A stretch of DNA of 64,000 nucleotides from Pseudomonadota bacterium (GCA_038747195.1 JBCDKA010000002.1:19616-83615); one strand, 5' to 3'; shown: positions 2 through 49,552, counted from the stretch's first letter. A program made the numbers and translations. Notes: generated by a model from the letters alone, not told the origin.

Positions 2-2116
2 GAGGTACGGGAAGACACGCCGACGCTGATTACGCTGGACGGATCGGACCCCGATCCGCTGGACATGCTGACCTTCAGCATCACTGAGATGCCGCAGCAC
101 GGAACGCTGACCCTGAGCGGCAACCAGGCGACCTATACACCCGATCTCAATTTTGTCGGCGAAGACCACTTCAGCTTCAACACGAGCGACGGTCTCGATA
201 CCTCGGCCAGCGAGGCGGTCACCATCCTGGTGGAAAACGTCAACGATCCCGCCGTTGTAACGTTCGACGAAGCACCGATTACGGCAGCGCGGGGTTTTGA
301 CACCCTGTTGGAAGGCACGCTGACCGACCCGGACGCCGCGGACAAACACTCCCTTCTGGTGCGATGGAATGACGGCACCCCGGATGAACCCGAGGGGGAG
401 GTCACCATGATGGGCACGATCACCGGCCCCATGCTAATGGAGCGGGCCACGGGTGACGGCTCAATCCGAGCCAGCCATGTATTCGAGAACGCCGGTTTGT
501 TTAGCGTCCAGTTCTGCGTCACTGACCAGATTGACGACTCCAGCGGGAACAAGGTTCCGACGGCGGACTCGCTCACGCTGTGTTCGCCGGTCGATGTGCA
601 GGTCGAGGACCTCTTGGATCTGACGCTGACCGTGAGCGGACCCGACGTGCTTGTGCGAGGCCAGTCGAGCAACTACGAAGTCACGCTGACCAATGAACAG
701 CCGTCGAGCGGCTCGGGTCTCACCGCGACTGGCCTGACCGCCACCGTCGACATCGATCCGGTGCTGATCACCTCAGCACCGGCGGGCTGCACGCTGACCG
801 GCAGCCGGGCGACGTGCAGCTTCGGGGATCTTGCTCCTGGGGAAAGCGATACCATCACCATTCCGATCATCGTGCCGGCAGACCCCGGCGGCGCCAGCAG
901 CGTGACCAGCGAGGTCGAAGTGCTGGTGGATCAAGCTGATAGAAAAGGAGCCAACAAACTGGTTGTCACGACGCCGCTGGCGACTGATGCGGACATCATC
1001 ATCGGTGGAGCGGGCGATCAGGAACTGGCGGATGATGAGGATGCGGTTCCGGGCGACGGTCTCTGTGAGGGCAACAACACCGGGACATGCAACCTGCGGG
1101 CCGCAGTCATGGAAGCCAACGCGTCTGCGTCAGTCAACTCGATCGCGCTGGGCAACGGCGTGTTTGCATTGACGCGAATGCCCCCAGGCTTGACCAAGTC
1201 TTCGGCCCTGGGCGACCTGGACGTGACCGAAGACCTCACGATCACCGGCAACGGTCCGCAGTTCACGTTTATCAATGCGGGCGGCGTCGACCGGGTCCTG
1301 GACGTAAGCGCAACCCTCGTGCTGGAAGGCGTGACGCTGTCAGGCGGGCTCTCCGCTGAGGGGGAGGGTGACAACGGCGCCGCGATTCGCGTAACCGGCG
1401 ACGGCCGGGTAGTGCTGCGCAACGTGCGAATCACCGGCAACGACGCGGCGGGCGCGGGCGGCGCCATCTGGGTCGACAGCACCCAGCCGGACGCGCTGCT
1501 GATCGAAAACAGCGTGATCAGCGCCAACACCGCTGCAGACGGCGCCGGGGTTGTCATGGTGAACGGCGGCGCTCAGCTCACAAACGTGACCTTCTCAGCG
1601 AACCGCGCCAGCGGTGATGGCGGAGCATTCCTGCTTCAGGGTGGCACGATGACCTTGCTGAACGTGACGGTAGCCGGGAACTCCGCCGTTCGTGGCGGAG
1701 GTGTGCTGCTGGACGGCGGCACGCTGGACACTACCAATACGCTGCTGGCAGACAATGCAGCAAGCACCGGCGCGGACTGCCAGTCGCTCGGCGGCAGCCT
1801 GATCTCCGGCGGCGGTAACCTGGTGGAACGGACCGACGGCTGCAGCGGCTGGAACCCCAGCCTCGACAAGCTCAGCGCACCGCCAGGTATCACCGAGCTG
1901 CTGGACAACAGCGGACCGACCCGAACCTACGCACTGCTGCCTGGCAGCCCGGCGCGGGACGGCGGTGTCCTGGCAACCTGTCCAGGAACCGATCAGCGCG
2001 GCCAGCCGCGGGCGACAGACGGGGTAGGAAACGGCCGGCCCGGCTGCGACATCGGCGCCTTCGAGGCGGCCGCGGTGCCGCTGCAGGAGACCATCTTTGC
2101 CAACTCGTTTGAGTGA
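2..2116 (+). CDS. Large exported adhesin-like protein, 5'-truncated by the window edge (cadherin-like / PKD-like / DUF11-like modules plus CSLREA-capped right-handed beta-helix)
   Basis: The frame of track ORF 65..2116 stays open back to nt 2 (EVREDTPTLITLDGSDPDPLD, no stop). Motifs: VENVNDPAVV (cadherin-like linker), HVFENAGLFSVQFCVTDQ (PKD-like), DUF11-like repeat (YEVTLTNE...CSFGDLAPGES), GTCNLRAAVMEANA (CSLREA-like), repeated GGA/GGG beta-helix rungs, CDIGAFE, terminal IFANSFE. Collinear paralog of the C-terminal ~690 aa of 13225..18741. Confidence 0.85.
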   Translation, partial: EVREDTPTLITLDGSDPDPLDMLTFSITEMPQHGTLTLSGNQATYTPDLNFVGEDHFSFNTSDGLDTSASEAVTILVENVNDPAVVTFDEAPITAARGFDTLLEGTLTDPDAADKHSLLVRWNDGTPDEPEGEVTMMGTITGPMLMERATGDGSIRASHVFENAGLFSVQFCVTDQIDDSSGNKVPTADSLTLCSPVDVQVEDLLDLTLTVSGPDVLVRGQSSNYEVTLTNEQPSSGSGLTATGLTATVDIDPVLITSAPAGCTLTGSRATCSFGDLAPGESDTITIPIIVPADPGGASSVTSEVEVLVDQADRKGANKLVVTTPLATDADIIIGGAGDQELADDEDAVPGDGLCEGNNTGTCNLRAAVMEANASASVNSIALGNGVFALTRMPPGLTKSSALGDLDVTEDLTITGNGPQFTFINAGGVDRVLDVSATLVLEGVTLSGGLSAEGEGDNGAAIRVTGDGRVVLRNVRITGNDAAGAGGAIWVDSTQPDALLIENSVISANTAADGAGVVMVNGGAQLTNVTFSANRASGDGGAFLLQGGTMTLLNVTVAGNSAVRGGGVLLDGGTLDTTNTLLADNAASTGADCQSLGGSLISGGGNLVERTDGCSGWNPSLDKLSAPPGITELLDNSGPTRTYALLPGSPARDGGVLATCPGTDQRGQPRATDGVGNGRPGCDIGAFEAAAVPLQETIFANSFE

Positions 2117-2133
2117 CGTTTCCCGGTCGGGTC

Positions 2134-3075
2134 CTAGTTGCGCTCGAGGGAGCCGACCGCGCGCTGCTTGGCGCCCGCAATGGGCACAATTTTTGTCGAG
2201 TGACCAAACCAACCAGCCACGGTCGATTTCTTGCGTCGACTGATCGGGATCTTGAGGTCGTTGGTCAGCAGGCAATACCACTGTTGTCCGTCCCTGACGA
2301 TTTTCATGATGGCGTGGCGCGCAACCCAGTGGGCGCGATGTACGCGCATGCCGTTGTCCCCCAGCGCATCGGCAGCCCGCTGCAGGGACCCCAGGACCAT
2401 ACATTGGCCCAGGTCTGTGTGGATATGCAGGTAGTGCAGATCCGACGAAATAGCCAGGACGTTGGTGCCGAGAGACTCGGGGATGTCGCTCAAGAACTTA
2501 TTGCGAACGTCCTCTGCGTATCGTCCCGACTCGTCCTTTTCTACCTCCACCTCGTTGCGACCATTACCGTCCCCGTCGGGACCCGGCGGTCCGTTGTGGA
2601 CCGGTTTTGCTGACAAAAAAGGCAGGTTGATCGCCATCCATACCAGCAGCACCTGAGGTCCGTCTTCCAGGAATTCGGCCAGGAGACCCTGCCAAATGCC
2701 CTGGCTCTCGAAGACGTCCAGCCAGTCGCCGTCGTTGGACATCCACCACTCGGGCTGAATGCGCTCGATCAGGTAACCGAAGGGGGCCATCAGCGTGGCG
2801 CCGGCAATTCCGGCGATCACCAGGGCGAGCCAGGGCGGCAAATGGCGAATGATCCTGGGGAGCAGGAACCAGCTCGCGGCATACAGCGCAGCGAGCGCCA
2901 GACCGACGTTGGTCGTCCAGAACGCGATCCGTTCAAAAAACTTGAGCCCCTGGCTTGCTTCCGGCTCCATGAGTACGAAGATGGCCACCAGCGTTGCGCC
3001 CACGATGATAATCGATCGGCCCAAGGGCCAAAGACCAAATACCGTACCGTTGCTAACGTCCACGTGGCGATTCAC
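2134..3075 (-). CDS. Membrane-embedded LytTR-domain DNA-binding protein
   Basis: C-terminal LytTR-like block (ISSDLHYLHIHTDLGQCMVLGSLQRAADAL...VHRAHWVARHAI...IPISRRK) after about four hydrophobic helices. Track ORF 2134..3426 overlaps the upstream receptor gene. I place the start at GTG 3075 (alternatives GTG 3063 or ATG 2970), so the start is uncertain. Confidence 0.7.
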   Translation of the reverse strand: MNRHVDVSNGTVFGLWPLGRSIIIVGATLVAIFVLMEPEASQGLKFFERIAFWTTNVGLALAALYAASWFLLPRIIRHLPPWLALVIAGIAGATLMAPFGYLIERIQPEWWMSNDGDWLDVFESQGIWQGLLAEFLEDGPQVLLVWMAINLPFLSAKPVHNGPPGPDGDGNGRNEVEVEKDESGRYAEDVRNKFLSDIPESLGTNVLAISSDLHYLHIHTDLGQCMVLGSLQRAADALGDNGMRVHRAHWVARHAIMKIVRDGQQWYCLLTNDLKIPISRRKKSTVAGWFGHSTKIVPIAGAKQRAVGSLERN

Positions 3076-3104
3076 CGTGTTTACTGCCTGTCCCGATTCC
3101 AGCT

Positions 3105-13094: not shown

Positions 13095-13224
13095 CCCTGC
13101 CATAGCCCTGCAGGCCGATCGATCCTAGTGCAACCTGGAGGCAGACTTGTGCAACCAGGGTGACAGATCAGAGGGCGTAACTCTGGCAAGCTAAATGGCA
13201 TTCCACGGAGCGGGAGTGCGGCTT

Positions 13225-16200
13225 ATGTCAGGAAAAAAGACCTTTTTTGCGGTTATCTGCGGTTTTTGGCTCATCTGCGAAGCGGGTACTGCCGCAACGC
13301 CACCAGAGCTGTCGGGGCTGACTGCGCTGCTGTCGTCTGACAAGTCAGGCGGAGACGGGGAGCTGACGCGGCACACGCTGCAGACGCTCCCCTATCGGCA
13401 GGGGCGGATTACCCTTATCGAACCCCTGGTCCTTCAGTTCTCAGCGCCGCAAACGCGCTTTGTTGCGCAGCTGGACGATCCGGCTGGCGACTCGATCTAC
13501 GCGATCGAAGCCTTTCGCGGAACGGAATCGCTCGCGCTGGAGCGTTTTGCCTTGGGTGACCAGAAGCTGCCCAGCGTCAGGCCCGCGCCCGATGGCATGC
13601 TCTCCCTGAGCACCACGCAACCCTTTGACCGGGTGGAAATCCGCGAGATCCATGGTCGAGCTTCGAGCGATCCGGAGTACGTCGAGGCGCTCTATGCTGG
13701 GAATCCGTCGCAGAAAGGCGGGGGCAACGCCGATGCGCTCATCTGTCAGGTCCCGCTGGGCCTCACCTACAACGTCGCCTTTGGAGTTGCGCTCGTGGCG
13801 TTCGACCCCCTAACGGTGACCGCCGCAAACGCCGCGGCATACACGTCAAATCTGGGGCTGAAGTTCTGCAAAACGGTGATCGAGCCGCCGGCGGATATCG
13901 TGCGCTCGGTTGTACCCGGCCAGTGCGTGAAGAATTTTCTCCAGCCGCACATGGTGGCGGAGTACGAAAACGCCCTGGGCGTGCCGCTGAAATTTGAATA
14001 CAACTGGGGCCAGCTCGGTACGCCGATTGTCTTCCATCACAATACCGAGGTGGAGGTCAGTCTCCAGTTCGATTCACCGCCTTCGCCAAGCGTCGAAAAT
14101 TTCAGCCTTCGCGCCCTGCTGACCGATTCGTCGCTCGACGGCACCGATGCCATCTATCGCGAGTGTGACGACAAGAACGGCACGAAGCGCTTCAGTCAGC
14201 TGGAGCCGGGGGTCGGCCCACGCTACGAGTGCCCGTACGTAGTCAATCGCGAGCTGGCGGTGCCGGTCGGCGAGAATACGCTCGTCTGGCGTGCTAACGC
14301 CAAGATGGGTCTCCTGGACCTATTCTCCCCGCTGATACCCGGCGTACCCACCGGCGCCAAGGTGCCGTACTACAAATCGATCCTGCTGCGCGTTGCGCAG
14401 GAAGCGCTGCTGATCGCCAGCGACTTCTTCCTCGGCGGCTGGCGCTGGGGCAACACGAGCGTGGCGTTTCAGACGGTCACGATTATCGATGACCGACCGC
14501 CGCAGATCCTTCCGGAACCGGAAAATGCCGCCATGCTCGAAGGGCGGATCACCGCCATGCTGATCAACGACGAGCTGCGGGTGCAGATCGAGGCGGACGA
14601 GCCGGGTGGCGTTTCAACTCGCCGCTACGAGCCGCTGCTGAAGCAGCTTTACCGGGTATTTGATCCTTGCGATCGGCCGGTGACGTTCACTGCGGCGTAT
14701 CCGAACGGTGGGCTGCGCACCTTCTGGCCGGTCAGCACGCAGGCCCAGGACCAGAGCTTCACGATCACCTGGACCGCCGAGGACCTCGGCCCCAACAACA
14801 ACGGCGTCCCCAACCAAACGCCGGCCACCATGCGGGTTGAGGTCGTGGATATTCGCCCGCCAGCGCTGCTGCCGCCGCCGGATATTGTCGAGATAACGGG
14901 GCAAACCGTGAGCGAGCTGGGTCAGCCGCTGGTGTTCGACTTTGTCGACTTAGACCCGCTCATCACCAACAACGCCAGCCTGCCGTTGGGGCAGGGTCTG
15001 ACCGAAGTGACCTGGACTGCCACCGACGCGTCCGGCAACAGCACAACGGCGGTGCAGCTGGTCAACCTCAAGGCGAGCAACGCTGATCCCACCGCGGATG
15101 CTCAAACGGGCGCCAATAGGGAGGAGGCTGTTTCCTTTGAGCCCACCACGCTGCGCCTGACCGGCAGCGACCCGGACGGTGACCCGCTGCGCTTTTTTGT
15201 GGAGCAGTATCCCGAGAACGGGTTCTTTGTGGCCCCGCTTTATCCCTACTTTGTCGAAGACTTTCGGGTTGCCCGAAACGTACCGACCGGAGACCTTTTC
15301 GACCAATTCTGCGACCCGGCCAATGCCGAGCAGGACTTCCAGATCAAGTATCCGGTGGAGCCGAGTTTTATCGACGTTTCCGAAGACGGCAGGACATTCG
15401 TGATGGACCGCGGCCGAATCGACTGCCGCGGTGGCGGGACAGCCAGCCGACGGCCACGCATCGCGGTCTTTCCGGCGGGCTTTGACCCCGACGGCAGCGA
15501 ATCGCCGCTGGCGATCCAGACGGCGGAGCCCGCCGATCTTGTGGTCGATGAGTTCAATCAGCTGATGGTGGTCACCACCAACTCAAGCGGTGGTGACGCA
15601 TTCGTGCGCACCTATGACTTTGCCCTGAACCAGGTGCAGGCTTACGACCTGGACGACGTAGACGATCGGGCAACCGGGACCTGCACCAACTTTGGCACGA
15701 ATAATTTTTGCGAGATTCGCGAGGCCCGCAGCGCGGTGGTCGACGCCAACGGCGTGCTCTACGTGATGGACGTAAAGGGGAGAATCTACGCCCTGGAACT
15801 GGTCGATGACACCACCTCGGCCACGCAGTTCATCGATTACCTGTCGGACGACGTGACCAACAGCAGCAATACGAACGTCTCGTCGCGCGCGCTGGCGCTG
15901 GACGCTGACGGGTTTGTCTACGCCACCCGCAACAACCGCATCTACAAATACGGACCCTCCTGGGTGGATGCTGACGGATTGGTTCAGATTGGTGAACCAA
16001 TCGGCTGGCTGGGCCGTTGCGACGTGGACCTGGCGCCGGGACAGGACGCGGTCTGCGACGTGACTAACCGCCGCAGCCTGGGTTTTTCCTGCACGGACGC
16101 AACCTGCAGTATCGATGATGCCATCACCCAGGAAGAAAAGGATTTCTGCGGTCTGACCTTCTCCAACCTGGGCAACTTCGGCTGCCGGCCGGGCCAGTTT

Positions 16201-18741: not shown

Positions 18742-18820
18742 GGTAGCTTAGGTCAATGCGTGGGTAGGACAACGGTTTGCCCCGATCACGCCGGAGCAGC
18801 AACCGGAGTAAGCTGGCGTT

Positions 18821-20128: not shown

Positions 20129-21610
20129 TCAGGATTCGAAGCTGTCTCTGAATAGCGTGTCGGTGACGGGGTCCAGCTCTAAAGCACCGATGTCGGGACT
20201 GAGGCCACGCTCGCGCCCGAGGATGTCGTCAAATGCCGCGGACGCCGGGTCGGCCGCATCCACACCGGCCGTGCCTGGCGCGGGTGTGCCAAACCGAATG
20301 ACCAGCGATTCAAATACCTGCCGGATGGTGCTTGAGCCGTCAGCAAAGGTCGTCCCGTTCCAGGTAGGCGGCACAAGGCCAAGCTGATCGGCGAACTGCG
20401 GGTCGGCAACGATGGCGTTAGCGTCGTCGCTGAAACGCAGATCCTGACCGTTATCCTCGGGGATGGGGTTCGCGCCGTTGAAGTACAGATTGTTGTCCAG
20501 CGTAGCTGCTGCCGTGTTGCCGGCGGGTGCGTCGAACAGATCGACGCCGCTAAAGCCTTCTGTGCCCATTGTTCCGGTCGGATCGGCGTAGATATTGTTG
20601 GCGAAAGTCAGATTCTCGTTGGCCGGGTTGGCGCCGGAGGCCAGCAGCCGGCCGGCAAAGCTGCGCGCCGCCATGTCGCCCACCAGCGTGTTGTTGCGAA
20701 AGATCAGGTCGCGAGAGCCCTGGACGGTGAGCGGGGAGCGCATCAGATCTGTGCTGTTGCCGATCATCAGATTGTTTTCCACGAGCAGATCGCGGGCTTC
20801 AAAATTTGCCGTGCCGTCTTCGCCAAACCGTAGGAAGCTCTGGCCGGCATTTCCGAGCCAGTTCGCAAACACGTTGCGGCGCACCGTGACGTCTTGGGTG
20901 CCCACCACCGTATCGCTGCTGCCGTTGGAGTCTTTGACCACGATATAGGAGCTGGTGGCGTTGTCGACGCTGTTGAAGAACACGTTGTCTTCGATCACCA
21001 CGTCGATCACGCTGTTGACGTCCATGTGCTCGTCCGAACCAAACTGGTTGTAGAACAGGTTACCGATCACTTGCACCCGCTCGGCGCCGTTGTTGATTTT
21101 CAGCAGGTCGTTGTTGGTGCTGTCGTGAATGATGTTGTTGCGAAACGTAATGTCTGACACAACCGGATCGTTGCCGCCATCGCTGCCGTTCACCGCGCCG
21201 AGCAGATCCTGAACCTGCACCACCAGCCCACCGGTATTGCCCGGCGCATGGGCAATGTCGAATCCTTCGATCACGATGTTGCGGCCAGTGAACACCACGA
21301 GGGCCGCACCGCTGTTGTGCCGAAGCTGTGCCTGATAGGGCACCTCCGATCGCACCGTGACGGGCTGGACGAACTGCCGGCGCAGGGTTTGCCGCCCGTT
21401 GTAGAGGCCAGGCCGAACGAGGATTGTGTCACCCCCAACCGCGTTGTCCACCGCGTGGGTCAGGGTAGCCCAGGGGTTGCCGACGGTGCCGTCACCGGTT
21501 TGATCGCTGCCGTCTACAGCGACATAGCGGAGCCCGCCCGCGAGGGCAGACGCGCTCCAAAACAAAAGCGTGACCGCACAAAGGCATCGACACACAAGCC
21601 GATGATTCAT
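20129..21610 (-). CDS. Exported right-handed parallel beta-helix protein (DUF1565/pectate-lyase-like)
   Basis: Signal peptide (CLCAVTLLFWSASALAGG). GNPWATLTHAVDNAVGGDTILVRPGLY cap, repeated N-x-[IVF] helix rungs, PDIGALE, terminal LFRDSFES. Start set at ATG 21610 (GGAGAG upstream); the track start is GTG 21619. Confidence 0.8.
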   Translation of the reverse strand: MNHRLVCRCLCAVTLLFWSASALAGGLRYVAVDGSDQTGDGTVGNPWATLTHAVDNAVGGDTILVRPGLYNGRQTLRRQFVQPVTVRSEVPYQAQLRHNSGAALVVFTGRNIVIEGFDIAHAPGNTGGLVVQVQDLLGAVNGSDGGNDPVVSDITFRNNIIHDSTNNDLLKINNGAERVQVIGNLFYNQFGSDEHMDVNSVIDVVIEDNVFFNSVDNATSSYIVVKDSNGSSDTVVGTQDVTVRRNVFANWLGNAGQSFLRFGEDGTANFEARDLLVENNLMIGNSTDLMRSPLTVQGSRDLIFRNNTLVGDMAARSFAGRLLASGANPANENLTFANNIYADPTGTMGTEGFSGVDLFDAPAGNTAAATLDNNLYFNGANPIPEDNGQDLRFSDDANAIVADPQFADQLGLVPPTWNGTTFADGSSTIRQVFESLVIRFGTPAPGTAGVDAADPASAAFDDILGRERGLSPDIGALELDPVTDTLFRDSFES

Positions 21611-21857
21611 CACCAACACTCTCCCAAAACGATCCAGGACACTAGCACCGCAGCCTCGCGAAAACTGCGAACTCTGTCGGGCACTCCAAGCAACTCGGGT
21701 TCACCGTGACCTGATGCGAAGCGTCGGGTACGTCCGACCCAAGTGTTATCGGTCTGTCGTAAGGAGAATTTAAGAACGCCGTGAGCCAGAAGCGTCTTTC
21801 GAAATCGGTTTGCCTTCGCTTGAGGGTCGGCGCCGCAGCGACGCCGACCACGGAGAT

Positions 21858-23690: not shown

Positions 23691-23887
23691 CACGAAATTC
23701 TCCGAAAGAGCTGTTCAGTCAAGCTAAATTCTGTGCGTGGGAGATTCTCGATGCTTGAACAAAGCTTGACGAAACTCTAACGAAGTCCCTAAAACCGCCA
23801 ATGTCTGACGTTTATGAGTGGTCGTGCTTGCTCAAGCCGTAGGATGGAGGCTCGCTAGGTAAAATTCCCGGCGCGGCCCGCAGCGGG

Positions 23888-35992: not shown

Positions 35993-36198
35993 GTCAGCAT
36001 GTTTCCGCTGTTGTGATTGCGCGGCAACGGTTGCCGGCTAGCCGGCTGCATTTCCTGGCCGCAGAACGACCTAGCTTACGCCCGATTCAGCCTCCGGAAA
36101 CGCTCCACCGTGCTCAGGGGCTTGGCGCATCTCAAGGCCCCTGCAGACGGAAGCGCTGCTACACTCAGGACGAGGGTAGTCCAAGTAGGGGTTTGGTC

Positions 36199-39100
36199 AT
36201 GCCGCGTTTGCGTTTCGTGTCTCTTTTCGTTTTCTTGCTCGGCCCATCGTTGTTGCACGCCGGCGAAAGCATTCAGTTTCGTTTTGAACAAGCGTTGCCC
36301 ACGCTGCAGCAGCCCTGGTTCTTCGGGCTGCGCGGGGGAATTGCCGTAGATGAGGACAACTTCGTCTATGTCACGGAGCGCGATACTGAGGTTATTCGCA
36401 AGTTCAACCGCTCTGGCTTGCTTGTCACAAGCTGGGGTCGGCGAGGCACGGGTGACGGCGAGTTTGCTGGCCCTCATGACGTCGCGCTGAGTGACGACGA
36501 TCGGGTTTATATCACCGATGAGTTCAATCATCGCGTTCAGATTTTCACCCGGGATGGCGTTTACCTCGCGCAGTTTGGTGCCTTTGGAAGCGGCGACGGC
36601 CAGCTGAACCGGCCGACTGGAGTTGCTCAGCACCAGGGGTTTGTCTACGTTGCCGACAGCGAAAATTTCCGGATCCAGAAGTTTACCAGCGACGGTGACT
36701 ATGTCGGCCAGTGGGGCAGCGAAGGCAGCGGCAACGGCCAGTTTCAACGCCCCGAAGACATCGCCATCTCGCGTACGGGATTTGTTTACGTCATTGACCA
36801 GGCCCGACCGTTTATCAACTACGAGAACACTCGTGTTCAGTATTTTGATACGGAGGGCAACTTTATTGGAACGTGGGGCTCTACCGGCACCGGGCTGGGG
36901 CAGTTCCAGGAGCTCGTCGCCATCGAGGTGGATCAGTTTGGCGTTGTCTTTACGTTAGACGAGGATGGCCGGATTCAGCGCTTCACCCCGGACGGCCTGG
37001 GGGTTTCTCAATTCACGATGGATCCTGACGAACTGCCTATCAATCGACCGAGCGGGATTGCCAAAGCCCCGGACGGGCGCATATACGTTCGCGATGTCTC
37101 GCGCGTCTCCCAGTTCCTGCCGACCGGGCAGTTTGCTGATCGCTGGGGCAGCCTGGGTGATGAGCTTGGCCAGTTCAATTTTCCGCTGGGTATTGCGGCC
37201 CAGGCCAACGGTAACCTGCTCGTGTCGAATATCTTCAACAACCGGGTACAGGTCTTCACGCCGGAGGGTATGCCGTTGTCGTCATTCGGCGGTCCCGGGA
37301 GTCCTGGGGAGCTCATCGGACCGGGGCAAATTGCCGTGAGCGCACAGGGCGATATTTATCTGAGCGAACTCACGTCAAGCCGCGTCAGCGTATTCGACGA
37401 GAATTTTAATTTCATCCGGCGAATCGGTAGTTTTGGTTCGGGAAATGGTGAGTTTGACCTCCCGCGTGGCGTAGGGATCGACAGCCAAGGTTTTGTTTAC
37501 GTGGCCGACGGCAACAACCATCGCGTTCAGAAGTTTACCCCTGACGGGACCTACGTTGATCAGTGGGGCGTCAGGGGGAGTGAAAACGGGAACTTCGAAA
37601 GACCCAACTCATTAGTGGTTGGGCCCGGCGATCTCATTTACGTAGCCGATCGCGATCTCGACCGGATTCAGATCTTTGAATCTGACGGAACATTTGTGAG
37701 CGTTTTTGGCGAGAGCGGTACGGGTCCGGGGCAGTTCAATATTCCGGAAAGTATGGCGTTTGATTCGTTTGGCTTCCTTTACGTTGCTGATGTGTTCAAC
37801 GATCGATATCAGGCCTTTACGGCCAATGGGGAGTATGTTGGCAAGTACGATATGCCGGGCGTGGCACCCGGCTCGTTGACCCGGCCTGGCGGCATCTATT
37901 TCGATAACAGCCAGCGGGTTTTCATGGTCGATGGCCGAAATAACCGCCTGCAGCGGTTCAGCCGAGTTGAGTTGCTGCCGGATTCTAAGGTTGTGGTTGT
38001 CGCGGGCGGCGGCCCTTATCCGGGAAATCCCTTGTGGGACGCCACCCAGGTCAACGCCAACTTTGCGTACCGAACGCTAGCCGTTCAGGGTTTCACCGAC
38101 GACCTCATCTACTATCTAACGCCGAACCTGGACCTGGATCTGGACCAAAACGGGAACTCTGATGAAGTGGACGGTGTGCCTACCGCACAGGCTTTGCGGG
38201 AGGGGATTCTGGGATCCTTTGGCGCAGACGCCGACAATCTCACTCTCTATCTCGTAGATCATGGCGGTGACAAAACGTTTCGACTGACCGAGAACGAAAT
38301 CCTCAGCTCGAGTGAGCTCGATAGCTGGTTGGACGAGTGGCAGGCGACCCGGCCCAACGGCAACGTCACCTTGATTTACGACGCGTGCCAGTCGGGCTCT
38401 TTCCTGGATGAACTTCGTGATCCCAATCGGATTCTGATTGCCTCGGCAGGCGCCGAAGAAGCCGCCTATTTTGTTTCCCAGGGCTCCCTGTCATTTTCGA
38501 ATCGCTTCTGGAGCCAGATCTTTAACGGAGCAACGCTGGGCGAAGCCTATGATCTGGCCAGCCAGGCCACCTCAACGGCGTTCCCGCTGCAAAACCCCCT
38601 GCTCGACGCTGACGGCGACGGTAGCTTCAATACGGCTGCCGACCTGGCGGCAATCGAAAATTTGGTGATTGGAGCGGGCACCGAAGTGGACGGTAACGCG
38701 CCGGTGATCACCAGCGTCAGCCCCGTTCAGAACCCGACCGCGAGCACCGCAACGATCGAAGCCAACGGCGTCACCGATGCCGACGGCATTGCCCGGGTGT
38801 GGGCCGTGCTTCGTCCCCCGGGTTTTGCGCCAGACTCGGCCGATAATCCGGTGCAGGATCTCCCGACCGTTGAGCTTACCCAGCAGCCCGGCACAGCTGA
38901 CTATCAGGCGGAGTTTAGCGATTTCACCATTGCCGGAACCTACGATATATCGATTGAGGCCCAAGATCGTATTGGCAATACCGCGATCCCGAGGCTGACC
39001 CAGGTGGTAGTGGGCACACCCGTCAGGCGCCGCGCGGTCATCATCGGTGGCGGTGATCCGTCCGCGCCGGAATTTGCAAACCTGAAGACCAACAGCGATC

Positions 39101-40062
39101 TGGCGCTGGCGGCGCTTAACCTCCAGGGCTACGGGCCTGACGGGATCACCTGCAATGATCCGAGCTGCGACGATGTGTACTACATGACGAGCGGATCCTC
39201 CACCGGCTCCGACGCGGGCACCAACCTGACTAACGTTGAATTTGCGATCACCAGTTTTGGCGTCGACAACGCCGAAGACTTGACGGTTTATCTGGTTGCG
39301 CCCAAGTCCGGTGCTGGCTACCGTCTGAACAACACCGAAATCCTCGACGCAGCAACGCTGGACGGGTGGCTCGATACCGCTCAGGCGACGTTGCCCGGCG
39401 TATTGACGGTGATTGTTGATGCTGATGACGCGCAGACCTTTATGCAGGGTATTGCCCCAGATGGTGGACAGACGCGTTTTCTGGTGGCGAGCACGGACGT
39501 CGACGAAAATGCGAGCTTTGAGCTGGGCGGCGAGGTGTCCTTCTCTCGCTTCTTTTGGAATCAGACGCTGAATGGCGCGCGCCTGCGCCAGGCGTTTCAG
39601 GTCGCGCGTCGGGCGATCAATCTGACACAAAACGCCCAGCTCGACGTGGATGGCAACGGCGTGCCGAATCAGATTACCGATGCGCTGGTCGTCGACGATT
39701 ACTTCATCGGCTCCGGCGTGGCCCTGGCTGGTGATGACCCCTTTGTTTCCGAGGTGATGGTCAACGCTGAGCTGGTCAGCGATTTTGAATCCATCACTGC
39801 TACCGGCGTCACCTCTACCGGCTCGATCGATCGGGTGGTTGCGATTGTGGCCCAGCCGGATGGTGCGCTGGTGACCCAGCCGTTAGCGACGGTCGGCGAC
39901 GCTTTCTCCGACCGCAGCTTTGGGCTGTGCGGTCCCGCCGGAAGTTATGGTGTTGCGGTGCATGCCATCGACGCCGAGGGCAACGTATCGCTTCCAGCTG
40001 AGGCGACGGTGAACCGCGCCACGGACTGCGCAGACTTTCAGTTTGCCTCCGGGTTCGAGTAA
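36199..40062 (+). CDS. Exported NHL-repeat propeller protein with tandem [C13 legumain-like module + Ig-like domain] x2
   Basis: Signal peptide MPRLRFVSLFVFLLGPSLLHA. More than 12 NHL repeats (G.G.GQF..P.G[IV]A.D..G..YV[AT]D..N.R[IV]Q.F). First C13-like module: YLVDHGG (His codon 38260..38262) and IYDACQSGSF (Cys codon 38386..38388). The 42-residue spacing compares with 41 in human legumain (FTDHGS ... IEACESGSM). The second module has VAPKSG / VDADDAQTF at the equivalent positions. Terminal FQFASGFE. Confidence 0.85.
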   Translation: MPRLRFVSLFVFLLGPSLLHAGESIQFRFEQALPTLQQPWFFGLRGGIAVDEDNFVYVTERDTEVIRKFNRSGLLVTSWGRRGTGDGEFAGPHDVALSDDDRVYITDEFNHRVQIFTRDGVYLAQFGAFGSGDGQLNRPTGVAQHQGFVYVADSENFRIQKFTSDGDYVGQWGSEGSGNGQFQRPEDIAISRTGFVYVIDQARPFINYENTRVQYFDTEGNFIGTWGSTGTGLGQFQELVAIEVDQFGVVFTLDEDGRIQRFTPDGLGVSQFTMDPDELPINRPSGIAKAPDGRIYVRDVSRVSQFLPTGQFADRWGSLGDELGQFNFPLGIAAQANGNLLVSNIFNNRVQVFTPEGMPLSSFGGPGSPGELIGPGQIAVSAQGDIYLSELTSSRVSVFDENFNFIRRIGSFGSGNGEFDLPRGVGIDSQGFVYVADGNNHRVQKFTPDGTYVDQWGVRGSENGNFERPNSLVVGPGDLIYVADRDLDRIQIFESDGTFVSVFGESGTGPGQFNIPESMAFDSFGFLYVADVFNDRYQAFTANGEYVGKYDMPGVAPGSLTRPGGIYFDNSQRVFMVDGRNNRLQRFSRVELLPDSKVVVVAGGGPYPGNPLWDATQVNANFAYRTLAVQGFTDDLIYYLTPNLDLDLDQNGNSDEVDGVPTAQALREGILGSFGADADNLTLYLVDHGGDKTFRLTENEILSSSELDSWLDEWQATRPNGNVTLIYDACQSGSFLDELRDPNRILIASAGAEEAAYFVSQGSLSFSNRFWSQIFNGATLGEAYDLASQATSTAFPLQNPLLDADGDGSFNTAADLAAIENLVIGAGTEVDGNAPVITSVSPVQNPTASTATIEANGVTDADGIARVWAVLRPPGFAPDSADNPVQDLPTVELTQQPGTADYQAEFSDFTIAGTYDISIEAQDRIGNTAIPRLTQVVVGTPVRRRAVIIGGGDPSAPEFANLKTNSDLALAALNLQGYGPDGITCNDPSCDDVYYMTSGSSTGSDAGTNLTNVEFAITSFGVDNAEDLTVYLVAPKSGAGYRLNNTEILDAATLDGWLDTAQATLPGVLTVIVDADDAQTFMQGIAPDGGQTRFLVASTDVDENASFELGGEVSFSRFFWNQTLNGARLRQAFQVARRAINLTQNAQLDVDGNGVPNQITDALVVDDYFIGSGVALAGDDPFVSEVMVNAELVSDFESITATGVTSTGSIDRVVAIVAQPDGALVTQPLATVGDAFSDRSFGLCGPAGSYGVAVHAIDAEGNVSLPAEATVNRATDCADFQFASGFE

Positions 40063-40740: not shown

Positions 40741-40921
40741 CCCGTTGCGGGCGGCGACCACTCGTGTTCATGAGCCGCACCGTGACCCGTCTTGGTGACC
40801 AATTGCGCTTCGATAAGATAGCGGGACGGCAAATGGCTGCGGTTGTGTATCGTCGAGGATTCCTGGGTTGAATCCTGTGGCCGATGCTATCAATCCGCTC
40901 TTGCACTCAGGAGACTCCGGT

Positions 40922-42379
40922 ATGCGCACAATAACAACCCTAATAACGCTACTCAGTTTGTTCGCCGGCAGCGCCTCGGCGCAGCTAGAGTTCGGCGCCA
41001 ACGATTTTCGGATCACCACGTTTGGGCCGGACGGCACCAACGCCTTTGGCGCAATTCGCCCGGAGATCGCCTACAACAGCAGCGCCGATGAGTATCTGGT
41101 GATCTTCATCGCCAATACGGACCAGGGGCCAACAGCTCCGTCGGAGGTGGAGCTTTGGGGGCAGCGGGTGGGGCCTGACGGAAGCCTTTTGGGCCGGCCA
41201 ACGCTGCTGACCGATGTCGGCGGCATCGGCGCGGTCGGCGCAACACCGAACTTCTACCGCGTCATCTACGTGCCCTCAAGAAACGGCTATTTTGTGAGCT
41301 ACAGCGCCGCTGACTCGGATTTCGGGGATACCACTTTCAGGGTTTATGGGCTGTTTTTAACCGCTGCCGGCGCGCCGGACGGCGCGGCGTTTCAGCCGAC
41401 GTCGGGTGGCACCACCGTTACCAACCAGCGCGGTGAGTTTTCTCCGGACATCGTCTACAACTCAGTCGATGACAACATTCTGCTCGCCTGGGAGCGCAGC
41501 ACGGACGCGGCAGAGGCGGCGATCTTTGCCCGTCTGCTGTCGGCCAGCGACGGCAGCCCCGAAAGCGCAGAGATCCAGGTGGATTCTGTGAACGTCTTTT
41601 CGGTGGACGTTGCGGTTGCCCATAACGCCTCGGACAACGAATTCCTGGTGCACTGGCGACGCGGTTTCAGCCAGTCGACGATGTTTCAGATCCTCGACGA
41701 TGCGGCGCAGCCTCAGCTGATGGCGGATCGGGAGCTCGCCAGCCCTGGATACTTCTCGGGCAAAAGCAGCGTCGCGTTCGATCCCGACGCGCAGCAGTAC
41801 CTGGTCGTATGGGTCAACTCTGATCCGGCCCTGGGAACGGTGGAAGGGGCGTACGAGATCTTTGGCCGTCGCGTCGCTGCCGGCGGCGATCTGCTGGGAA
41901 CGGATAAGTTTCGAATCAGCCAGTCAGACGGCCTCGATACGCTGGCTTTTGGTGCCAACGTGGACTGTGGCCCCAACAACCCGTGTCTGGGGACCGCTCG
42001 ACCAGGTATCGACTACTCGAATTTCGAGGATGCCTTCGTCGTTTCCTGGAGCAGCACGCTGCTCCAGACTGACCCTGCCGAGATGCAGACCAACCAGCTC
42101 GACAGCCTGGTCAGGCGCATCGCCTCCGGGCAGGACGCCGACCCGGCAAGCCCGCAGGTGCAGATCAGCAATGCGGGCGGCCAGGAGTTGGGCTTCTTTG
42201 GCGTTCACGCGGTTATCGCTGCCGGTGCCGGCGGTCGGTATCTGGCGACCTGGTGGGGTGACGACAACCGCAACGGGGGAAGTCAGTCGGAAACCGAGGT
42301 CTGGGGACAGGTGCTGCTGGCCAACTCGCTGCGCGATGTTTTCGTAGATAGCTTCGAGAGCCCTCCGCCCGGACGCTAA
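40922..42379 (+). CDS. Exported hypothetical protein with about seven degenerate internal repeats (propeller-like)
   Basis: Signal peptide MRTITTLITLLSLFAGSASA with AGGAGA upstream. Repeat pattern P.I.YN...[DN].[FY]LV.W.....E[IV][FW]G[QR]RV...G.LLG recurs. Terminal VFVDSFESPPPGR. Confidence 0.75.
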   Translation: MRTITTLITLLSLFAGSASAQLEFGANDFRITTFGPDGTNAFGAIRPEIAYNSSADEYLVIFIANTDQGPTAPSEVELWGQRVGPDGSLLGRPTLLTDVGGIGAVGATPNFYRVIYVPSRNGYFVSYSAADSDFGDTTFRVYGLFLTAAGAPDGAAFQPTSGGTTVTNQRGEFSPDIVYNSVDDNILLAWERSTDAAEAAIFARLLSASDGSPESAEIQVDSVNVFSVDVAVAHNASDNEFLVHWRRGFSQSTMFQILDDAAQPQLMADRELASPGYFSGKSSVAFDPDAQQYLVVWVNSDPALGTVEGAYEIFGRRVAAGGDLLGTDKFRISQSDGLDTLAFGANVDCGPNNPCLGTARPGIDYSNFEDAFVVSWSSTLLQTDPAEMQTNQLDSLVRRIASGQDADPASPQVQISNAGGQELGFFGVHAVIAAGAGGRYLATWWGDDNRNGGSQSETEVWGQVLLANSLRDVFVDSFESPPPGR

Positions 42380-43497: not shown

Positions 43498-43788
43498 GGT
43501 TTTTGTCCTTTGGGCACCGGGTGGCGGCCATGTTCACATCCTGAAGATGAATCCGGTCGGCCAGACTCGCCGCCGCAATCGCTAACCCAGGCGCAACCGC
43601 CGACATGATCAGCGTAACACCGGTTTGCCGGGTGGCACCCAAAGCCCGGTGGCCAGCAGCCCAATCGCGACTGCGTCGACAAAAACTCATCGCGGCGCAG
43701 CGCGTGTACCACTCGCGGCTTTTGCCCTAGTGCGTGTCGTTTTTCTCGACCAATTGCGTAGTCAACAGGAGCAATGCAAGGAGCGAGC

Positions 43789-45516
43789 ATGGTGAGTATT
43801 CGATTGGTCATAGTTCTGATAGTGCTCTCAGGACTGGGCACCCCGCGGGTATCGATGGCTGGGAGCAAAGGGTTTGTCCTGCCGCCAGCGACCCTTCGTG
43901 TCGGCTCCGACCCCGCATGTGATTTTTCCTCGCTGGGAGACGCGCTAGATGCGGCCGCCGACCGCGATTTGATCCTGGTCAATAGCGGGACCAATTTTCT
44001 GACCAACGGTTTCGAAATCAATGAGAAGAGCCTGACGCTGATCGGCGGCTACCCCAGCTGCACGGCGGATGAGTCCGATCCCGACGCCCGGAGCGCGATG
44101 TCGGGAGTGGCCCTCAGCTCCGTGTTGGAGATTCAAAACGCGACGGCGACGCAAAGAACCGTTGTCGTTCGAAATTTTGTGATTCGCGGCGGCCGCTCAG
44201 ATCAGACAGGAGGCGGCGGTATCGATATCCGCGAAAACGTTCGGGTACGCCTCGATAACGTCTGGGTGCAAGAAAACGAGTCGACCACCGGCGGCGGGAT
44301 CAGCATCCGTGGCTTAGGGTTTCCTGCCTCACTGCGCCTGGAAGGTGGGACGCGCGTGGGCCTGGCTTCGGAGATGTTCGGCAATACGGCCTCCGAGGAG
44401 GGCGGGGGCATTTTCTGCCGCCGTGCCGCGATCGAGTGGGTGGACGCCACCATCGAATGGAATGCGGCTGAGGAAGGCGGGGGACTCTATGCGTTTGAGT
44501 GTCAGGTAACGACGCCACCGATTACCGATGATGGGCCCGCGCAAATCGTGGGGGCGCTCAACAACACGGCGGCCTCTATCGGCGGCGGGATCTCGCTCCG
44601 CAGCATCGGAGTCGGGGAGTCGTCCATCCAGCTGAGTAGTTCTCCCCAGCGGCAGATTCTCATCTCCGGCAATAGCGCTGGCGGGGACGGCGGCGGCGTG
44701 GCGCTCTCCGAATCGAGTTTCATTGGAGACGGCATCGCGATCGTCGACAATCAATCGGGAAATTCCGGTGGGGGTGTCCGGGTCTTTAGCTCGATTTTTG
44801 ATCTGGATCGAGGTGACGGTGGGACCTGTGCCAACCTGCAAAGATGTTCGCAGATCAGCGGCAACACCGCCGAGACGAGCGCTGGTGCCGTGTATGTGCT
44901 GTCGGGTACAGCCGATCTTCGCCAGACGTTCATCGACAACAACGAATCGGATCGCGCTCCGGTGATCCTGGCGACGGGTAGTGATTCGATGGTGGTTATG
45001 CGGAGCGTACAAATCTCTGGCAACGTGGAAACTGGATTGGTCAACTCAACGCTGATGTTCGGTTCCATGTCGGTGTTCGACATGAACTTTGTGACGGTGA
45101 CTGGCAACACGTCGGACAGGGTTATCGAGCTGATCAACAACTCGTCGCTGGCGGTGAGCAACAGCATCTGGTGGGAGCCGGCCATGGAACTGGTCGTCGG
45201 TGACGAATCCAGCGGGACGGCCAGCGCCTGCATGAACGCCAGCGACGACAGCAGCTTATCTGCCGATACCCGCGACCCGGAATTCGAAATTATTGTCCAG
45301 AACGGTCAGACCCCAATTTACGCGCTCGCCGACACCTCACCCAATGTGGACGCCTGCGCGGGGGTCGCCATGAAAGGTATGGGCCTGTCGGTGGACGCCC
45401 TCGGTGAGTCGCGCTTTGTCGATCAGCCGGACATCGCCAACGGTCCCGGATTTCAGGATCGCGGCGCCTTCGAACTTCAGCTGCCGCTGCTGTCCGACGG
45501 CTTCGAGGATCCCTGA
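43789..45516 (+). CDS. Exported right-handed beta-helix protein (polymorphic-membrane-protein-like GGG[IVL] rungs)
   Basis: AAGGAG lies 5 nt before ATG 43789 (track start 43774). Signal peptide MVSIRLVIVLIVLSGLG. Repeated GGGI/GGGL/GGGV/AGAVY rungs, QDRGAFE, terminal LLSDGFEDP. Confidence 0.8.
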   Translation: MVSIRLVIVLIVLSGLGTPRVSMAGSKGFVLPPATLRVGSDPACDFSSLGDALDAAADRDLILVNSGTNFLTNGFEINEKSLTLIGGYPSCTADESDPDARSAMSGVALSSVLEIQNATATQRTVVVRNFVIRGGRSDQTGGGGIDIRENVRVRLDNVWVQENESTTGGGISIRGLGFPASLRLEGGTRVGLASEMFGNTASEEGGGIFCRRAAIEWVDATIEWNAAEEGGGLYAFECQVTTPPITDDGPAQIVGALNNTAASIGGGISLRSIGVGESSIQLSSSPQRQILISGNSAGGDGGGVALSESSFIGDGIAIVDNQSGNSGGGVRVFSSIFDLDRGDGGTCANLQRCSQISGNTAETSAGAVYVLSGTADLRQTFIDNNESDRAPVILATGSDSMVVMRSVQISGNVETGLVNSTLMFGSMSVFDMNFVTVTGNTSDRVIELINNSSLAVSNSIWWEPAMELVVGDESSGTASACMNASDDSSLSADTRDPEFEIIVQNGQTPIYALADTSPNVDACAGVAMKGMGLSVDALGESRFVDQPDIANGPGFQDRGAFELQLPLLSDGFEDP

Positions 45517-45578: not shown

Positions 45579-46235
45579 TTGAGTTTCCCCGCCAGTTTTG
45601 ATTGCATACCCGCAGTAGCAGGCAATCCAAGGTGGCGCGGTCCGGTGTCAATCGACAAACCAACGCCCTCAGAATCCGAGCAGCCGGGAATCACGACGAC
45701 GGCGCTTCTCGATCGAGCGAACAGCGGGGACGAGGCGGCGCGCGACGCGCTGTTCCAGCGCGTGCTCCCCATGTTGCGCCGCTTCGCGCGCGGCCGTTTG
45801 CCCGCCTGGGGCAGAGACTCCGCCGAAACCGAGGATCTTGTGCAGATCACGCTGCTTCGCGCGTTTAAACGTCTGGGCGACTTTAAGGCTGAGCGCCCTG
45901 GTGCGTTCCTGTCGTATCTGCGCACCATCATGATGAACGCGGTACGCGACGAAATCCGCAAAAAGGGCCGTCGACCGCATAGCACCTCTTCGGTCGAAGA
46001 AGCGGTGATCGACCCGGAGAGCGTCGTGGCGAACGTAGTCGGCATGGAGACAATCGATGCGTATGAAGGGGCGATGGCCGAGCTCAACGAAGGCCGGCGT
46101 GAGGCGGTGATGATGCACGTAGAGTTTGGGATGACTTACGCAGAGGTGGCCCTGGAGCTTGGGCTGCCGTCAGCCAACGCCGCCCGCATGAGAATCAAGC
46201 GGGGGCTGGAGGAAGTGGCCAGGCTGATGCCCTGA
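45579..46235 (+). CDS. ECF-type sigma-70 family factor
   Basis: Region 2 (EDLVQITLLRAFKRLGDFK...FLSYLRTIMMNAVRDEIRK) and region 4 (EAVMMHVEFGMTYAEVALELGLPSANAARMRIKRGL). Start uncertain: TTG 45579 in the track, GTG 45645 is an alternative. The stop TGA overlaps the kinase ATG (TGATG, 46233..46237). Confidence 0.8.
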   Translation: MSFPASFDCIPAVAGNPRWRGPVSIDKPTPSESEQPGITTTALLDRANSGDEAARDALFQRVLPMLRRFARGRLPAWGRDSAETEDLVQITLLRAFKRLGDFKAERPGAFLSYLRTIMMNAVRDEIRKKGRRPHSTSSVEEAVIDPESVVANVVGMETIDAYEGAMAELNEGRREAVMMHVEFGMTYAEVALELGLPSANAARMRIKRGLEEVARLMP

Positions 46236-48448: not shown

Positions 48449-48457
48449 CAATCCGCG

Positions 48458-49552
48458 CTAGAAGATCACACCCGGAATAATCCAGTCATCATCCCCTTCC
48501 AGCCCGTCGGAAAAGATCTGCGCCTCGTAGGCTCCCAGGTCCACCGCGGGTCCGACGATGCGCCCCATGCCGTCCGCGTCCCTCGGCGGCAGTCCGTCTG
48601 GCACCGGGAGCCCCGCGTCGATCAGCGGTGAGCCGATATTCGGGCTCACGCCAAGCGAGCCAAGACCGAGCTGCGGGTTTCCGCTGAGCGTGCCGGTTTC
48701 CTCCAGGGGATTTGAGCCGGCCAGTGAGTTCAAGAAGTTCCGATTGAGCCGGACGCTGGATCCCGCCAGCAGCAGGTCGTCCCCATTGTTGTCGGCAAAC
48801 ACGTTGTTGAGCAGGCGCACCGTGGCGTTTCCGCCGATCCGGACACCTGCGCCATCATCTGCTGCGGAGTTTTCGGCGATTGTCACGTTGGCTATGAGGT
48901 TCTCCGCGCCGTTCAGCAGCAGCTCGGCGGCGCCGCCATCACCGCCCGCCGCGTTCCGGAAAAACACGGAGTTCTCCAGACGCAGGCTGCCCCGGTCGAG
49001 AATGACATAAAGTCCGGCGCCCTGTTCGGTGGCCTCGTTGAGGTTAAAAATCAGCGTAGAGAACCGATACGACCCCTCCCAGTCCGGCGAAAAGGATCGG
49101 GCGTCGATGCCGCCGCCGTTGAGCGAGATGACGGGATCATTGGCGCCGCCGCGGGTGATCGTCAGGTTTTCGACCGCGATGTCGCCGCTGTCTGGACCCG
49201 GCTGAAGCACCAGCCCCTGAATCTGAAAATCGCCGTCGATGACGGTCAGTCGGGGGTTGTCTTTACGGCTGTCGCATACCGGCGCGTCCGGCGGATCAGG
49301 CGGGCCCCAGCCCCCCGACACCGTCAGGCCGCCGGGCTGGCTGGAGACGTAGCGAAAGCCGTTGTTGGCCGTGGGGACCAGGTACTGGCCCACCATCAAT
49401 CGGATTTCGTCAGTTTCGCTATTCCCGGCTGCGGCCAGCAGCGCGTTTTGGAGTGCGCTTGGGGTGCCGACGCAGAAGATCTCAGCGCGCGCGTTTGACG
49501 TCGCAAACGTCAGCGCCAAACTCAAGGTTATTCCAGAAAGTATCCGTTTCAT
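48458..49552 (-). CDS. Exported right-handed beta-helix protein
   Basis: AAGGAG lies 9 nt before ATG 49552 (track start 49609). Signal peptide MKRILSGITLSLALTFATSNARA. Beta-helix rungs (GGGI, GAGL, GGAA, GAGV), VDLGAYE, then IFSDGLEGDDDWIIPGVIF. Confidence 0.8.
   Translation of the reverse strand: MKRILSGITLSLALTFATSNARAEIFCVGTPSALQNALLAAAGNSETDEIRLMVGQYLVPTANNGFRYVSSQPGGLTVSGGWGPPDPPDAPVCDSRKDNPRLTVIDGDFQIQGLVLQPGPDSGDIAVENLTITRGGANDPVISLNGGGIDARSFSPDWEGSYRFSTLIFNLNEATEQGAGLYVILDRGSLRLENSVFFRNAAGGDGGAAELLLNGAENLIANVTIAENSAADDGAGVRIGGNATVRLLNNVFADNNGDDLLLAGSSVRLNRNFLNSLAGSNPLEETGTLSGNPQLGLGSLGVSPNIGSPLIDAGLPVPDGLPPRDADGMGRIVGPAVDLGAYEAQIFSDGLEGDDDWIIPGVIF

Follow-up and report, generated by a model that had tools for sequence, protein, structure and literature searches.

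Tail-bearing exported proteins in the window

The stretch of DNA analysed here, 64,000 nucleotides of a Pseudomonadota bacterium (GCA_038747195.1, contig C2 19616-83615, referred to below as the window), encodes eight exported proteins that share a short peptide motif closing with Phe-Glu, the FE tail. The source assembly, a metagenome-assembled genome of the Lysobacterales/Xanthomonadales, comprises 4.8 Mb in 374 contigs, with 61% G+C, and is 89% complete. The original prediction, made from the window alone, had proposed that these eight proteins carry a candidate sorting or processing signal at their extreme C-terminus. The eight C-termini that it quoted are present verbatim, and all eight nucleotide ranges given for the motif translate to the corresponding strings.

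The first of these genes enters the window from outside: its 3' part (2..2116, + strand; gene start upstream of the window) encodes the end of an 1835-aa exported protein with Big_9/Cadherin_5, DUF11, Beta_helix and choice-of-anchor Q matches, terminated by the tail IFANSFE (2093..2113, +) with the stop codon directly after. An 1848-aa exported protein (13195..18741, +) combines NHL, Big_9, DUF11, Beta_helix and choice-of-anchor Q and ends with LFVSGFE (18712..18732, +) followed by EL and the stop. On the opposite strand lies the gene for an exported right-handed beta-helix protein of 496 aa (20129..21619, −), the source of the orthologue set A2 and of the AlphaFold2 model described below, in which LFRDSFE (20135..20155, −) is followed by a single S before the stop. 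The neighbouring Calx-beta protein (611 aa, exported; 21858..23693, −) differs in that the motif is internal. Here LFADGFE, read from the translation, lies in a linker (22179..22199, −) and is followed by a 106-aa Cys-containing domain (21861-22178, −) for which no Pfam match was obtained at E <= 1e-4. A similar arrangement, with the motif and then '...KSCSL...', was seen on contigs C373 and C316.

Further along the window, an exported NHL-propeller plus Peptidase_C13 protein (36013..40062, +, as the longest open reading frame; a start at 36199 is plausible) ends with QFASGFE (40039..40059, +), preceded by F (FQFASGFE) and directly followed by the stop. The next carrier, an exported protein of ~485 aa without Pfam family (40868..42379, +), has the tail VFVDSFE (42338..42358, +), then SPPPGR and the stop, the full range reading VFVDSFESPPPGR*. 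In the 580-aa exported protein at 43774..45516 (+), which has a weak choice-of-anchor Q match and is followed by genes for an extracytoplasmic function (ECF) sigma factor and a Ser/Thr kinase, Leu replaces the first Phe (LLSDGFE, 45487..45507, +; then DP, stop). Finally, an exported beta-helix protein of ~364 aa with a choice-of-anchor Q domain (48458..49609, −) carries the variant tail IFSDGLE (48497..48517, −), then GDDDWIIPGVIF, the full range reading IFSDGLEGDDDWIIPGVIF*.

All seven window proteins with a visible N-terminus passed a crude signal-peptide test, in agreement with the Sec signal peptides predicted for them. The carrier domains had been described as unrelated, and Pfam indeed returned Big_9/Cadherin_5/DUF11/Beta_helix, NHL, Calx-beta, and NHL plus Peptidase_C13; three of the window tail proteins match no Pfam or NCBIfam family. 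Choice-of-anchor ends had been proposed for five of the proteins; the NCBIfam choice-of-anchor Q model (NF041518; cut-off 25 bits) matches five, four at 32.9-64.2 bits and one at 18.8 bits. The 64 kb contain seven canonical tails, one variant and one internal copy, where the genome average would predict ~1.2, which makes the window a tail hotspot, and further tail genes lie on contig C2 outside it, for example at window coordinates -5489..-3555 and 69996..70721.

The motif in the genome and in the order

The proteome used for counting consists of 4014 genes from a home-made gene caller, with signal peptides scored by a crude script of our own. A strict pattern, [LIVM][FLY].[DNS][GS]FE, gave 108 matches in these ~4014 predicted proteins when ~3 were expected from composition, a ~30-fold excess. 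The matches are concentrated at the end of the proteins: 85 of them (79%) have the stop no more than 8 residues away, in a zone that makes up 2.5% of all positions (binomial p ~3e-114). At the DNA level F-x-D-G-F-E occurred 42 times, compared to 0-3 times for each of six near-neighbour control hexapeptides; DNA patterns of this kind catch only part of the motif variants. A looser pattern applied to all stop-to-stop frames yielded 245 matches, 32 of them directly at the stop, 38 with 1-2 residues after the motif and 14 with 3-5. The genome-wide scan that had been put forward as a check thus came out in favour of the prediction, the motif being enriched, mostly C-terminal and nearly confined to signal-peptide proteins.

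The tail proteins number 91, or 2.4% of the proteome, with the consensus P-[DE]-x-[LIV]-F-x-[DNS]-[GS]-F-E plus 0-7 residues. The eight carriers of the window are all real but represent an undercount, more of the 91 being found on the same contig. Pro is enriched at position −4 and Asp/Glu at −3, while position −1 is Leu, Ile or Val in 89 of the 91 tails and is followed by Phe in 85. The residue after this first Phe varies, with Ala, Arg or Ser the commonest. The next pair consists of Asp (57), Asn (17) or Ser (17) and then Gly (62) or Ser (29), and is followed by the second Phe (88 of 91) and by the closing Glu, present in every tail. The residues behind the Glu are arbitrary: there are none in 31 proteins, one in 19, two in 21 and three to seven in 20. 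The strictly C-terminal placement originally assumed holds for the 79% of strict matches given above but not for the remainder. Five of the 108 sit 2-5 residues past the signal-peptide cleavage site, at the mature N-terminus, and about 18 occupy linker-like or interdomain positions. The motif thus tags ends and linkers and is not a C-terminal signal in the strict sense.

The codons of the tail follow genome usage (TTT/TTC 52/48 versus 53/47; GAC/GAT 70/30 versus 66/34), the tail serines are encoded by AGY as well as TCN, and there is no conservation past the stop codon. Selection therefore acts on the peptide and not on the DNA, and a DNA-level repeat or a 3'-end RNA element was ruled out on the same grounds. 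The FE tail thus has the hallmarks of a short linear motif maintained by protein-level selection.

Its behaviour as a portable module, as claimed, is borne out by the carriers, since single-linkage BLAST clustering divides the 91 proteins into 47 families, of which 41 are singletons. The crude signal-peptide test was positive in 59 of 73 tail proteins (81%) against a background of 30%, and most of the 14 test-negative ones show a signal peptide by eye. A lipobox was found in 3 of the 59, compared to 167 of 1104 other signal-peptide proteins. Within the C-terminal <=500 residues of 60 representatives, Pfam detected Big_9, Cadherin_4/5, Beta_helix, DUF11, FG-GAP, reprolysin-like M12 proteases, CARDB, fn3 and MAM. 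The tail comes 4-10 residues after each of the genome's 11 terminal choice-of-anchor-Q-like ends, and classical helix-plus-basic C-termini occur in only ~5 proteins genome-wide. The tail genes are clustered, 32 of the 91 having another tail gene within three genes.

Two further groups of proteins touch on the distribution of the tail. Tail-less members of the large adhesin family (contigs C185, C26, C134, C226, C42, C145, C1 and C69) often end in another recurrent module of ~50-70 aa with two Cys, for example '...RESWGSVTLRFLDCQQLEFSYDGADGIGELQLQRLTSVSGLRC*', which may be another lineage-specific domain alternating with the FE tail. DUF1800-like proteins with the motif right after the signal peptide are encoded on contigs C75, C293, C1 (33043-35064) and C214 (loci L110-L113). 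In a five-genome panel, homologues of these were found in the tail-bearing genomes G431 and G017 and neither in the motif-less G026 and G035 nor in the variant-tail genome G020. They were rejected as machinery, the motif being carried by the proteins themselves, which makes them clients.

The tail is conserved in the orthologues of both carrier families examined. The orthologues of the 20129..21619 protein come from 16 genomes and 7 families (48-95% identity), and the C-terminus of each reads [LIVMF]-F-x-[DN]-[GSD]-F-[EQ] plus 0-7 residues; in two of them, from family f3 (L019, L021), the motif closes with Gln in place of Glu. Both tail Phe, invariant in 17 orthologues, are among the 45 invariant alignment columns, while the stretch between beta-helix and tail drifts, as do the residues behind the tail. 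The variant tail of the 48458..49609 protein is kept as Q[IV]F.[DN]G[LMVA]EG in 8 orthologues (47-90% identity). An AlphaFold2 model of the 20129..21619 protein, calculated from the orthologue alignment, reached a predicted local distance difference test score (pLDDT) of 85.4 and a predicted template-modelling score (pTM) of 0.87. Residues 487-496 had pLDDT <50 and no secondary structure, the sole C-terminal stretch below 50, and the tail is thus predicted not to pack against its own protein. A second model, of the 48458..49609 family (9 sequences), had low confidence across the last 60 residues and was not informative on the tail. A peptide that is invariant yet apparently unpacked resembles a motif recognised in trans. 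The D-R variant described below makes an obligatory type I' turn at D-G less likely.

To delimit the taxonomic range we used 40 relatives, 201 genomes of the order (Lysobacterales/Xanthomonadales) and 298 other Gammaproteobacteria from ~215 families, with genomes and families labelled by handles (G..., f..., g...). F-x-D-G-F-E occurs 10-80 times per genome in most of the 40 relatives, versus 0-3 times for the reversed control, and is directly followed by a stop in 25 of 41 cases in G017 and 30 of 53 in G028. In the 201-genome sample, families f1, f3, f4, f5, f6, f9 and f11 are motif-positive nearly throughout, with up to 61 stop-linked copies per genome; in families f7 and f8 its occurrence is patchy. 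The motif is almost entirely missing from f2 and f12, two large, isolate-like families in which every genome is ~100% complete. We take these two, as a guess from GroES sequences, to be the Xanthomonadaceae and Rhodanobacteraceae. Model genera appear to lack the tail, which would explain why it was overlooked. Outside the order, in the 298 other Gammaproteobacteria, stop-linked F-x-D-G-F-E was limited to 0-1 per genome. In motif-less lineages the N-terminal, linker and C-terminal copies have disappeared jointly, and even the loose F-x-D-x-F-E was at background in motif-less genomes.

Two complete genomes from other families show the same placement with different detail. In G038, 27 of 29 real copies are C-terminal. 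In G342, 18 of 20 inspected copies are C-terminal, always with 1-10 trailing residues, and none of its 34 tails has the stop directly after. The consensus itself also shifts between lineages: genus g13 has the variant F-x-D-R-F-E throughout (for example loci L167, L170, L173, L176, L182, L185, L188 and L192 of G020), and G457 prefers F-x-N-G-F-E. Because the tails of G342, g13 and G457 escape it, the stop-linked count is too narrow as a measure of the trait. Lineage-wide consensus shifts are the pattern that would be expected if the tag co-evolves with a reader.

Comparison with known sorting signals

That no named family matches the tail, as originally stated, agrees with our searches. Neither NCBIfam (June 2026 release) nor Pfam has a model that matches it, not even when isolated tails are searched at E <= 10, and literature searches of the library used, with six motif strings and by topic, gave no match. 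The absence of a hydrophobic helix or basic cluster was likewise upheld, the 91 tails ending 0-7 residues past the Glu. The FE tail resembles the signals of PEP-CTERM/exosortase, LPXTG/sortase, GlyGly-CTERM/rhombosortase, MYXO-CTERM and IPTL-CTERM in being a lineage-restricted short C-terminal signature on many unrelated Sec-exported proteins. As with such tripartite signals, it follows choice-of-anchor domains and is present on a few percent of the proteome. It differs from them in having neither transmembrane helix nor basic cluster, in lacking a leaving group in a third of cases and in occurring also at the mature N-terminus and in linkers.

The 91 tails do not show the P-E-P, transmembrane helix and Arg/Lys cluster of PEP-CTERM, and no CTERM model of NCBIfam matches them at E <= 10; as regards an exosortase gene, a single weak Exosortase_EpsH match (35.6 bits) was obtained, to a 188-aa open frame of contig C36. 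The search for rhombosortase (TIGR03902) returned only generic rhomboid matches, at 22-25 bits against a cut-off of 84, and the GlyGly-CTERM architecture of Gly-Gly motif, transmembrane helix and basic residues is not seen in the tails. LPXTG/sortase systems use an LPXTG-like pentapeptide with a hydrophobic span and a positive tail, and cleavage within that motif requires residues behind it; with 31 of 91 proteins stopping right after the FE motif, no leaving group is available there. Since a third of the proteins end exactly at Glu, cleave-and-transfer of the sortase type, and with it a transpeptidation mechanism for the tail, is unlikely.

The C-terminal domain (CTD) of the type IX secretion system (T9SS) of Bacteroidota is likewise C-terminal and portable, occurs on Sec-exported adhesins and enzymes and marks cargo for an outer-membrane translocon. 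It is, however, a folded beta-sandwich domain of ~80-100 aa that is cleaved off, whereas the FE tail is an unstructured element of 7-8 conserved residues in Gammaproteobacteria, and no CTD family was among the Pfam matches of 60 tail proteins. Substrates of the type I secretion system have no Sec signal peptide and carry a signal within the final ~50 aa, in many cases together with RTX repeats; the tail proteins do have N-terminal signal peptides. Another parallel is N22 of the curli subunit CsgA, also a short unstructured terminal peptide of a Sec-exported protein, which targets it to an outer-membrane secretion channel. N22 differs in being N-terminal, restricted to one protein family and unrelated in sequence to the FE tail.

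A query consisting of the Q domain plus tail was compared with 1.84 billion representatives, and the best 150 matches were examined. In 35 of these the Q end lies near the C-terminus. About 20 of the 35 continue into a tail of the form [YF]-[LMF]-P-[LIV]-[IVL]-x-[RK], two into an FE tail, one into a helix-plus-basic anchor and one into a dockerin, and the remainder stop at the Q end. A third FE-tail protein within the best 150, P0152, was missed by the Q-end pattern. Homologues of the Q domain therefore bear alternative ends at the same site, so that the FE tail fills the 'anchor' slot.

In all, 28 of the best 150 beta-helix plus Q matches end in the [YF]-[LMF]-P-[LIV]-[IVL]-x-[RK] tail, for example '...VYLPLVIK' or '...LYLPLIRR' (P0007, P0017, P0028, P0044, P0082, P0091, P0104, P0110 and others). 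Like the FE tail, it is short, is placed after the D-x-G-A-x-E Q end and lacks a full transmembrane anchor; in contrast to the aromatic and acidic FE tail it is hydrophobic, Pro-containing and basic, and it presumably belongs to other phyla. We know of no description of this second tail. The FE tail is a sorting-type signature that had not been catalogued before, and the interpretation of the original prediction as a candidate sorting tail is supported; it may act as a sorting or processing signal.

Candidate readers of the tail

The surroundings of the tail genes gave no direct lead to a reader. A neighbour-family analysis around the 91 genes returned only ECF sigma factors, kinases and generic enzymes and no recurrent machinery, the ECF sigma families being the most recurrent neighbours genome-wide. 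In the window, regulators are interspersed with tail genes (45579-48448, 23888-26269 and 49703-51373), comprising an ECF sigma factor with a Ser/Thr kinase and two Trans_reg_C plus TPR proteins. A 753-aa protein encoded at 55339-57600 (−) has an N-terminal TIR domain and TPR repeats, an architecture known from some defence and signalling proteins. The other genes in the window are ordinary.

The genome encodes more than one candidate secretion locus. An Xps-type locus for a type II secretion system (T2SS) on contig C108 comprises a GspL-like protein, T2SSM_b, a 228-aa protein and GspD. Contig C200 carries an accessory gspC-D-E-F locus, whose GspC matches T2SSC (HR) at E = 2e-15 and has a PDZ-like C-terminal domain that aligns across 21 orthologues. 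A third cluster, with secretin, GspE, GspF and pseudopilin genes and thus T2SS- or type-IV-pilus-like, lies on contig C53 at 12620-24111, 7 kb from the tail gene at C53 3501-5846. It was dropped from consideration as not conserved, a similar secretin being present in few relatives only. The presence of a T2SS as such was rejected as an explanation, GspD being found in 40 of 41 relatives, motif-less ones included. The Xps-type system does not discriminate either, its marker T2SSM_b occurring in 195 of 201 genomes whether or not these have the motif.

The accessory locus behaves differently. PDZ-type GspC was searched in the same 201 genomes, and a genome was called motif-rich at a total of at least 8 F-x-D-G-F-E (control maximum 3). 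Both traits were present in 104 genomes and neither in 66, with 13 having the motif only and 18 the GspC only (odds ratio ~29, p = 3e-23, both uncorrected for phylogeny). The match extends to the largely motif-negative families. In f2 only G431 is motif-rich (65 copies) and only G431 has PDZ-type GspC, and in f12 the same seven genomes, and no others, are motif-rich and have PDZ-type GspC (7/7 versus 0/20; p = 1e-6). Family f12 also provides a within-genus contrast, G395 and G381 being two species that differ in motif and GspC alike. Of the 18 genomes with GspC only, 11 belong to genus g13, bearer of the variant F-x-D-R-F-E, which resolves this apparent exception; G457 is likewise resolved by its variant F-x-N-G-F-E. 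In the five-genome panel, choice-of-anchor Q proteins are present only in genomes with PDZ-type GspC.

A PDZ domain as the point of contact has precedents. Of the T2SS substrates only some depend on the PDZ domain of EpsC or OutC, PelI touches the OutC PDZ domain through a disordered loop, and no linear T2SS signal is known (PMC12369372). In Xanthomonas XpsC, a single helix takes the place of the PDZ fold seen in OutC and EpsC (PMC11981180). The present case resembles the PDZ-dependent selection described for Vibrio cholerae EpsC-VesB and Dickeya OutC-PelI (PMC12369372) in that the motif tracks a gspCDEF locus with a PDZ-like GspC and is missing where GspC has no such domain. In those cases, however, a folded Ig or Fn3 domain holds the information, which has no linear consensus (PMC12369372), whereas here a seven-residue consensus recurs in ~90 proteins. 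Moreover, binding of the tail is here a prediction, and family f8 is an exception.

The most economical model, which we put forward tentatively, is that the FE tail serves as a linear tag for the accessory PDZ-type T2SS. Carried on a flexible end of Sec-exported proteins of extracellular type, mostly at the C-terminus, occasionally at the mature N-terminus or in a linker, and with 0-10 arbitrary residues after it, the tail would most likely be recognised in trans once the protein has passed Sec, serving as a tag for export or sorting. The candidate reader would be the accessory gspC-D-E-F system of contig C200, and the contact could be made by the PDZ-like C-terminal domain of its GspC. These are three separate steps, the signal role, the T2SS as reader and the PDZ-like contact, each of which we infer.

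Several observations weigh against this model. None of the tail genes shows linkage to gspCDEF, nor does any neighbour gene recur beside them. The PDZ assignment of GspC is weak, with a PDZ_2 match at E = 8e-5 that falls below the gathering score. Family f8 is a real exception: at least 8 of its genomes have 8-22 motif copies and only an Xps-type T2SS with a GspC-like protein without PDZ. Motif-less genomes also lack whole carrier families, such as the choice-of-anchor Q proteins. The co-variation is a correlation that stems from few independent evolutionary events or losses, and shared ecology or joint loss of a repertoire could explain it without direct recognition. Finally, PDZ-type GspC is common outside the order, where the tail does not occur, so that any specificity would have to be lineage-specific. 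In a more far-reaching version of the model, which we regard as doubtful, this would be the first linear, transferable T2SS signal, read by the PDZ-like domain of the accessory GspC, serving ~90 substrates per genome in part of the Xanthomonadales and showing tag-reader co-evolution (F-x-D-R-F-E in g13).

A tag recognised in trans by another component of the envelope would account for several of these points. It could serve surface retention on an outer-membrane protein, lipopolysaccharide or capsule, loading into outer-membrane vesicles, or binding of a periplasmic chaperone, and the T2SS correlation would then reflect a shared accessory repertoire. The retention of tails without PDZ-type GspC in f8 and the missing carrier families of motif-less genomes fit this explanation, as do the carriers themselves, which are adhesin-like surface proteins of the kind anchored in other lineages, and the position of the tail, where homologues elsewhere bear transmembrane-plus-basic anchors, a dockerin or the other short tail. 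We nevertheless consider it rather unlikely, as neither a candidate receptor nor a recurrent neighbour gene was found for it and the fine match to gspCDEF in f2 and f12 would be coincidence.

The arbitrary nature of the 0-10 trailing residues, as if irrelevant or removed, together with the location of the internal copies exactly at domain boundaries and the Glu in 91 of 91 tails, could also indicate a determinant of processing or stability. The motif would then be a site for a periplasmic or secreted protease, for maturation, trimming to a uniform ...GFE end or separation of domains, or a cap against tail-specific proteases. This is improbable: a third of the tails end at Glu with nothing left to cleave, no protease co-occurs in the neighbourhoods of tail genes, and a cap against a tail-specific protease needs no seven conserved positions and would fail at the N-terminus. 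An element without a trans partner, either structural in cis (capping an edge strand or nucleating folding) or a neutral linker remnant that domain shuffling has spread within this lineage, would suit the location at domain boundaries, the turn-like [DNS]-[GS] pair and the clustering of 32 of the 91 tail genes, many in one expanded adhesin superfamily, which fits spread by duplication, but it is very unlikely in view of 47 unrelated folds, a tail left unpacked by AlphaFold2, near-invariant Phe, Phe and Glu across the order while the adjacent spacer drifts, and all-or-none gain and loss with lineage-wide consensus shifts, as from co-evolution with a reader.

How a T2SS chooses its substrates is a long-standing open question. 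A portable, conserved tag on a few percent of the proteome that co-varies with one T2SS variant down to the within-genus level makes this question directly testable. Whatever the reader, the tail could be given a hidden Markov model or a pattern rule for annotation, and it shows that sorting-like tags need not follow the architecture of motif, helix and basic cluster. For many uncultured Xanthomonadales of sea and soil, it also serves as a marker of the extracellular proteome.

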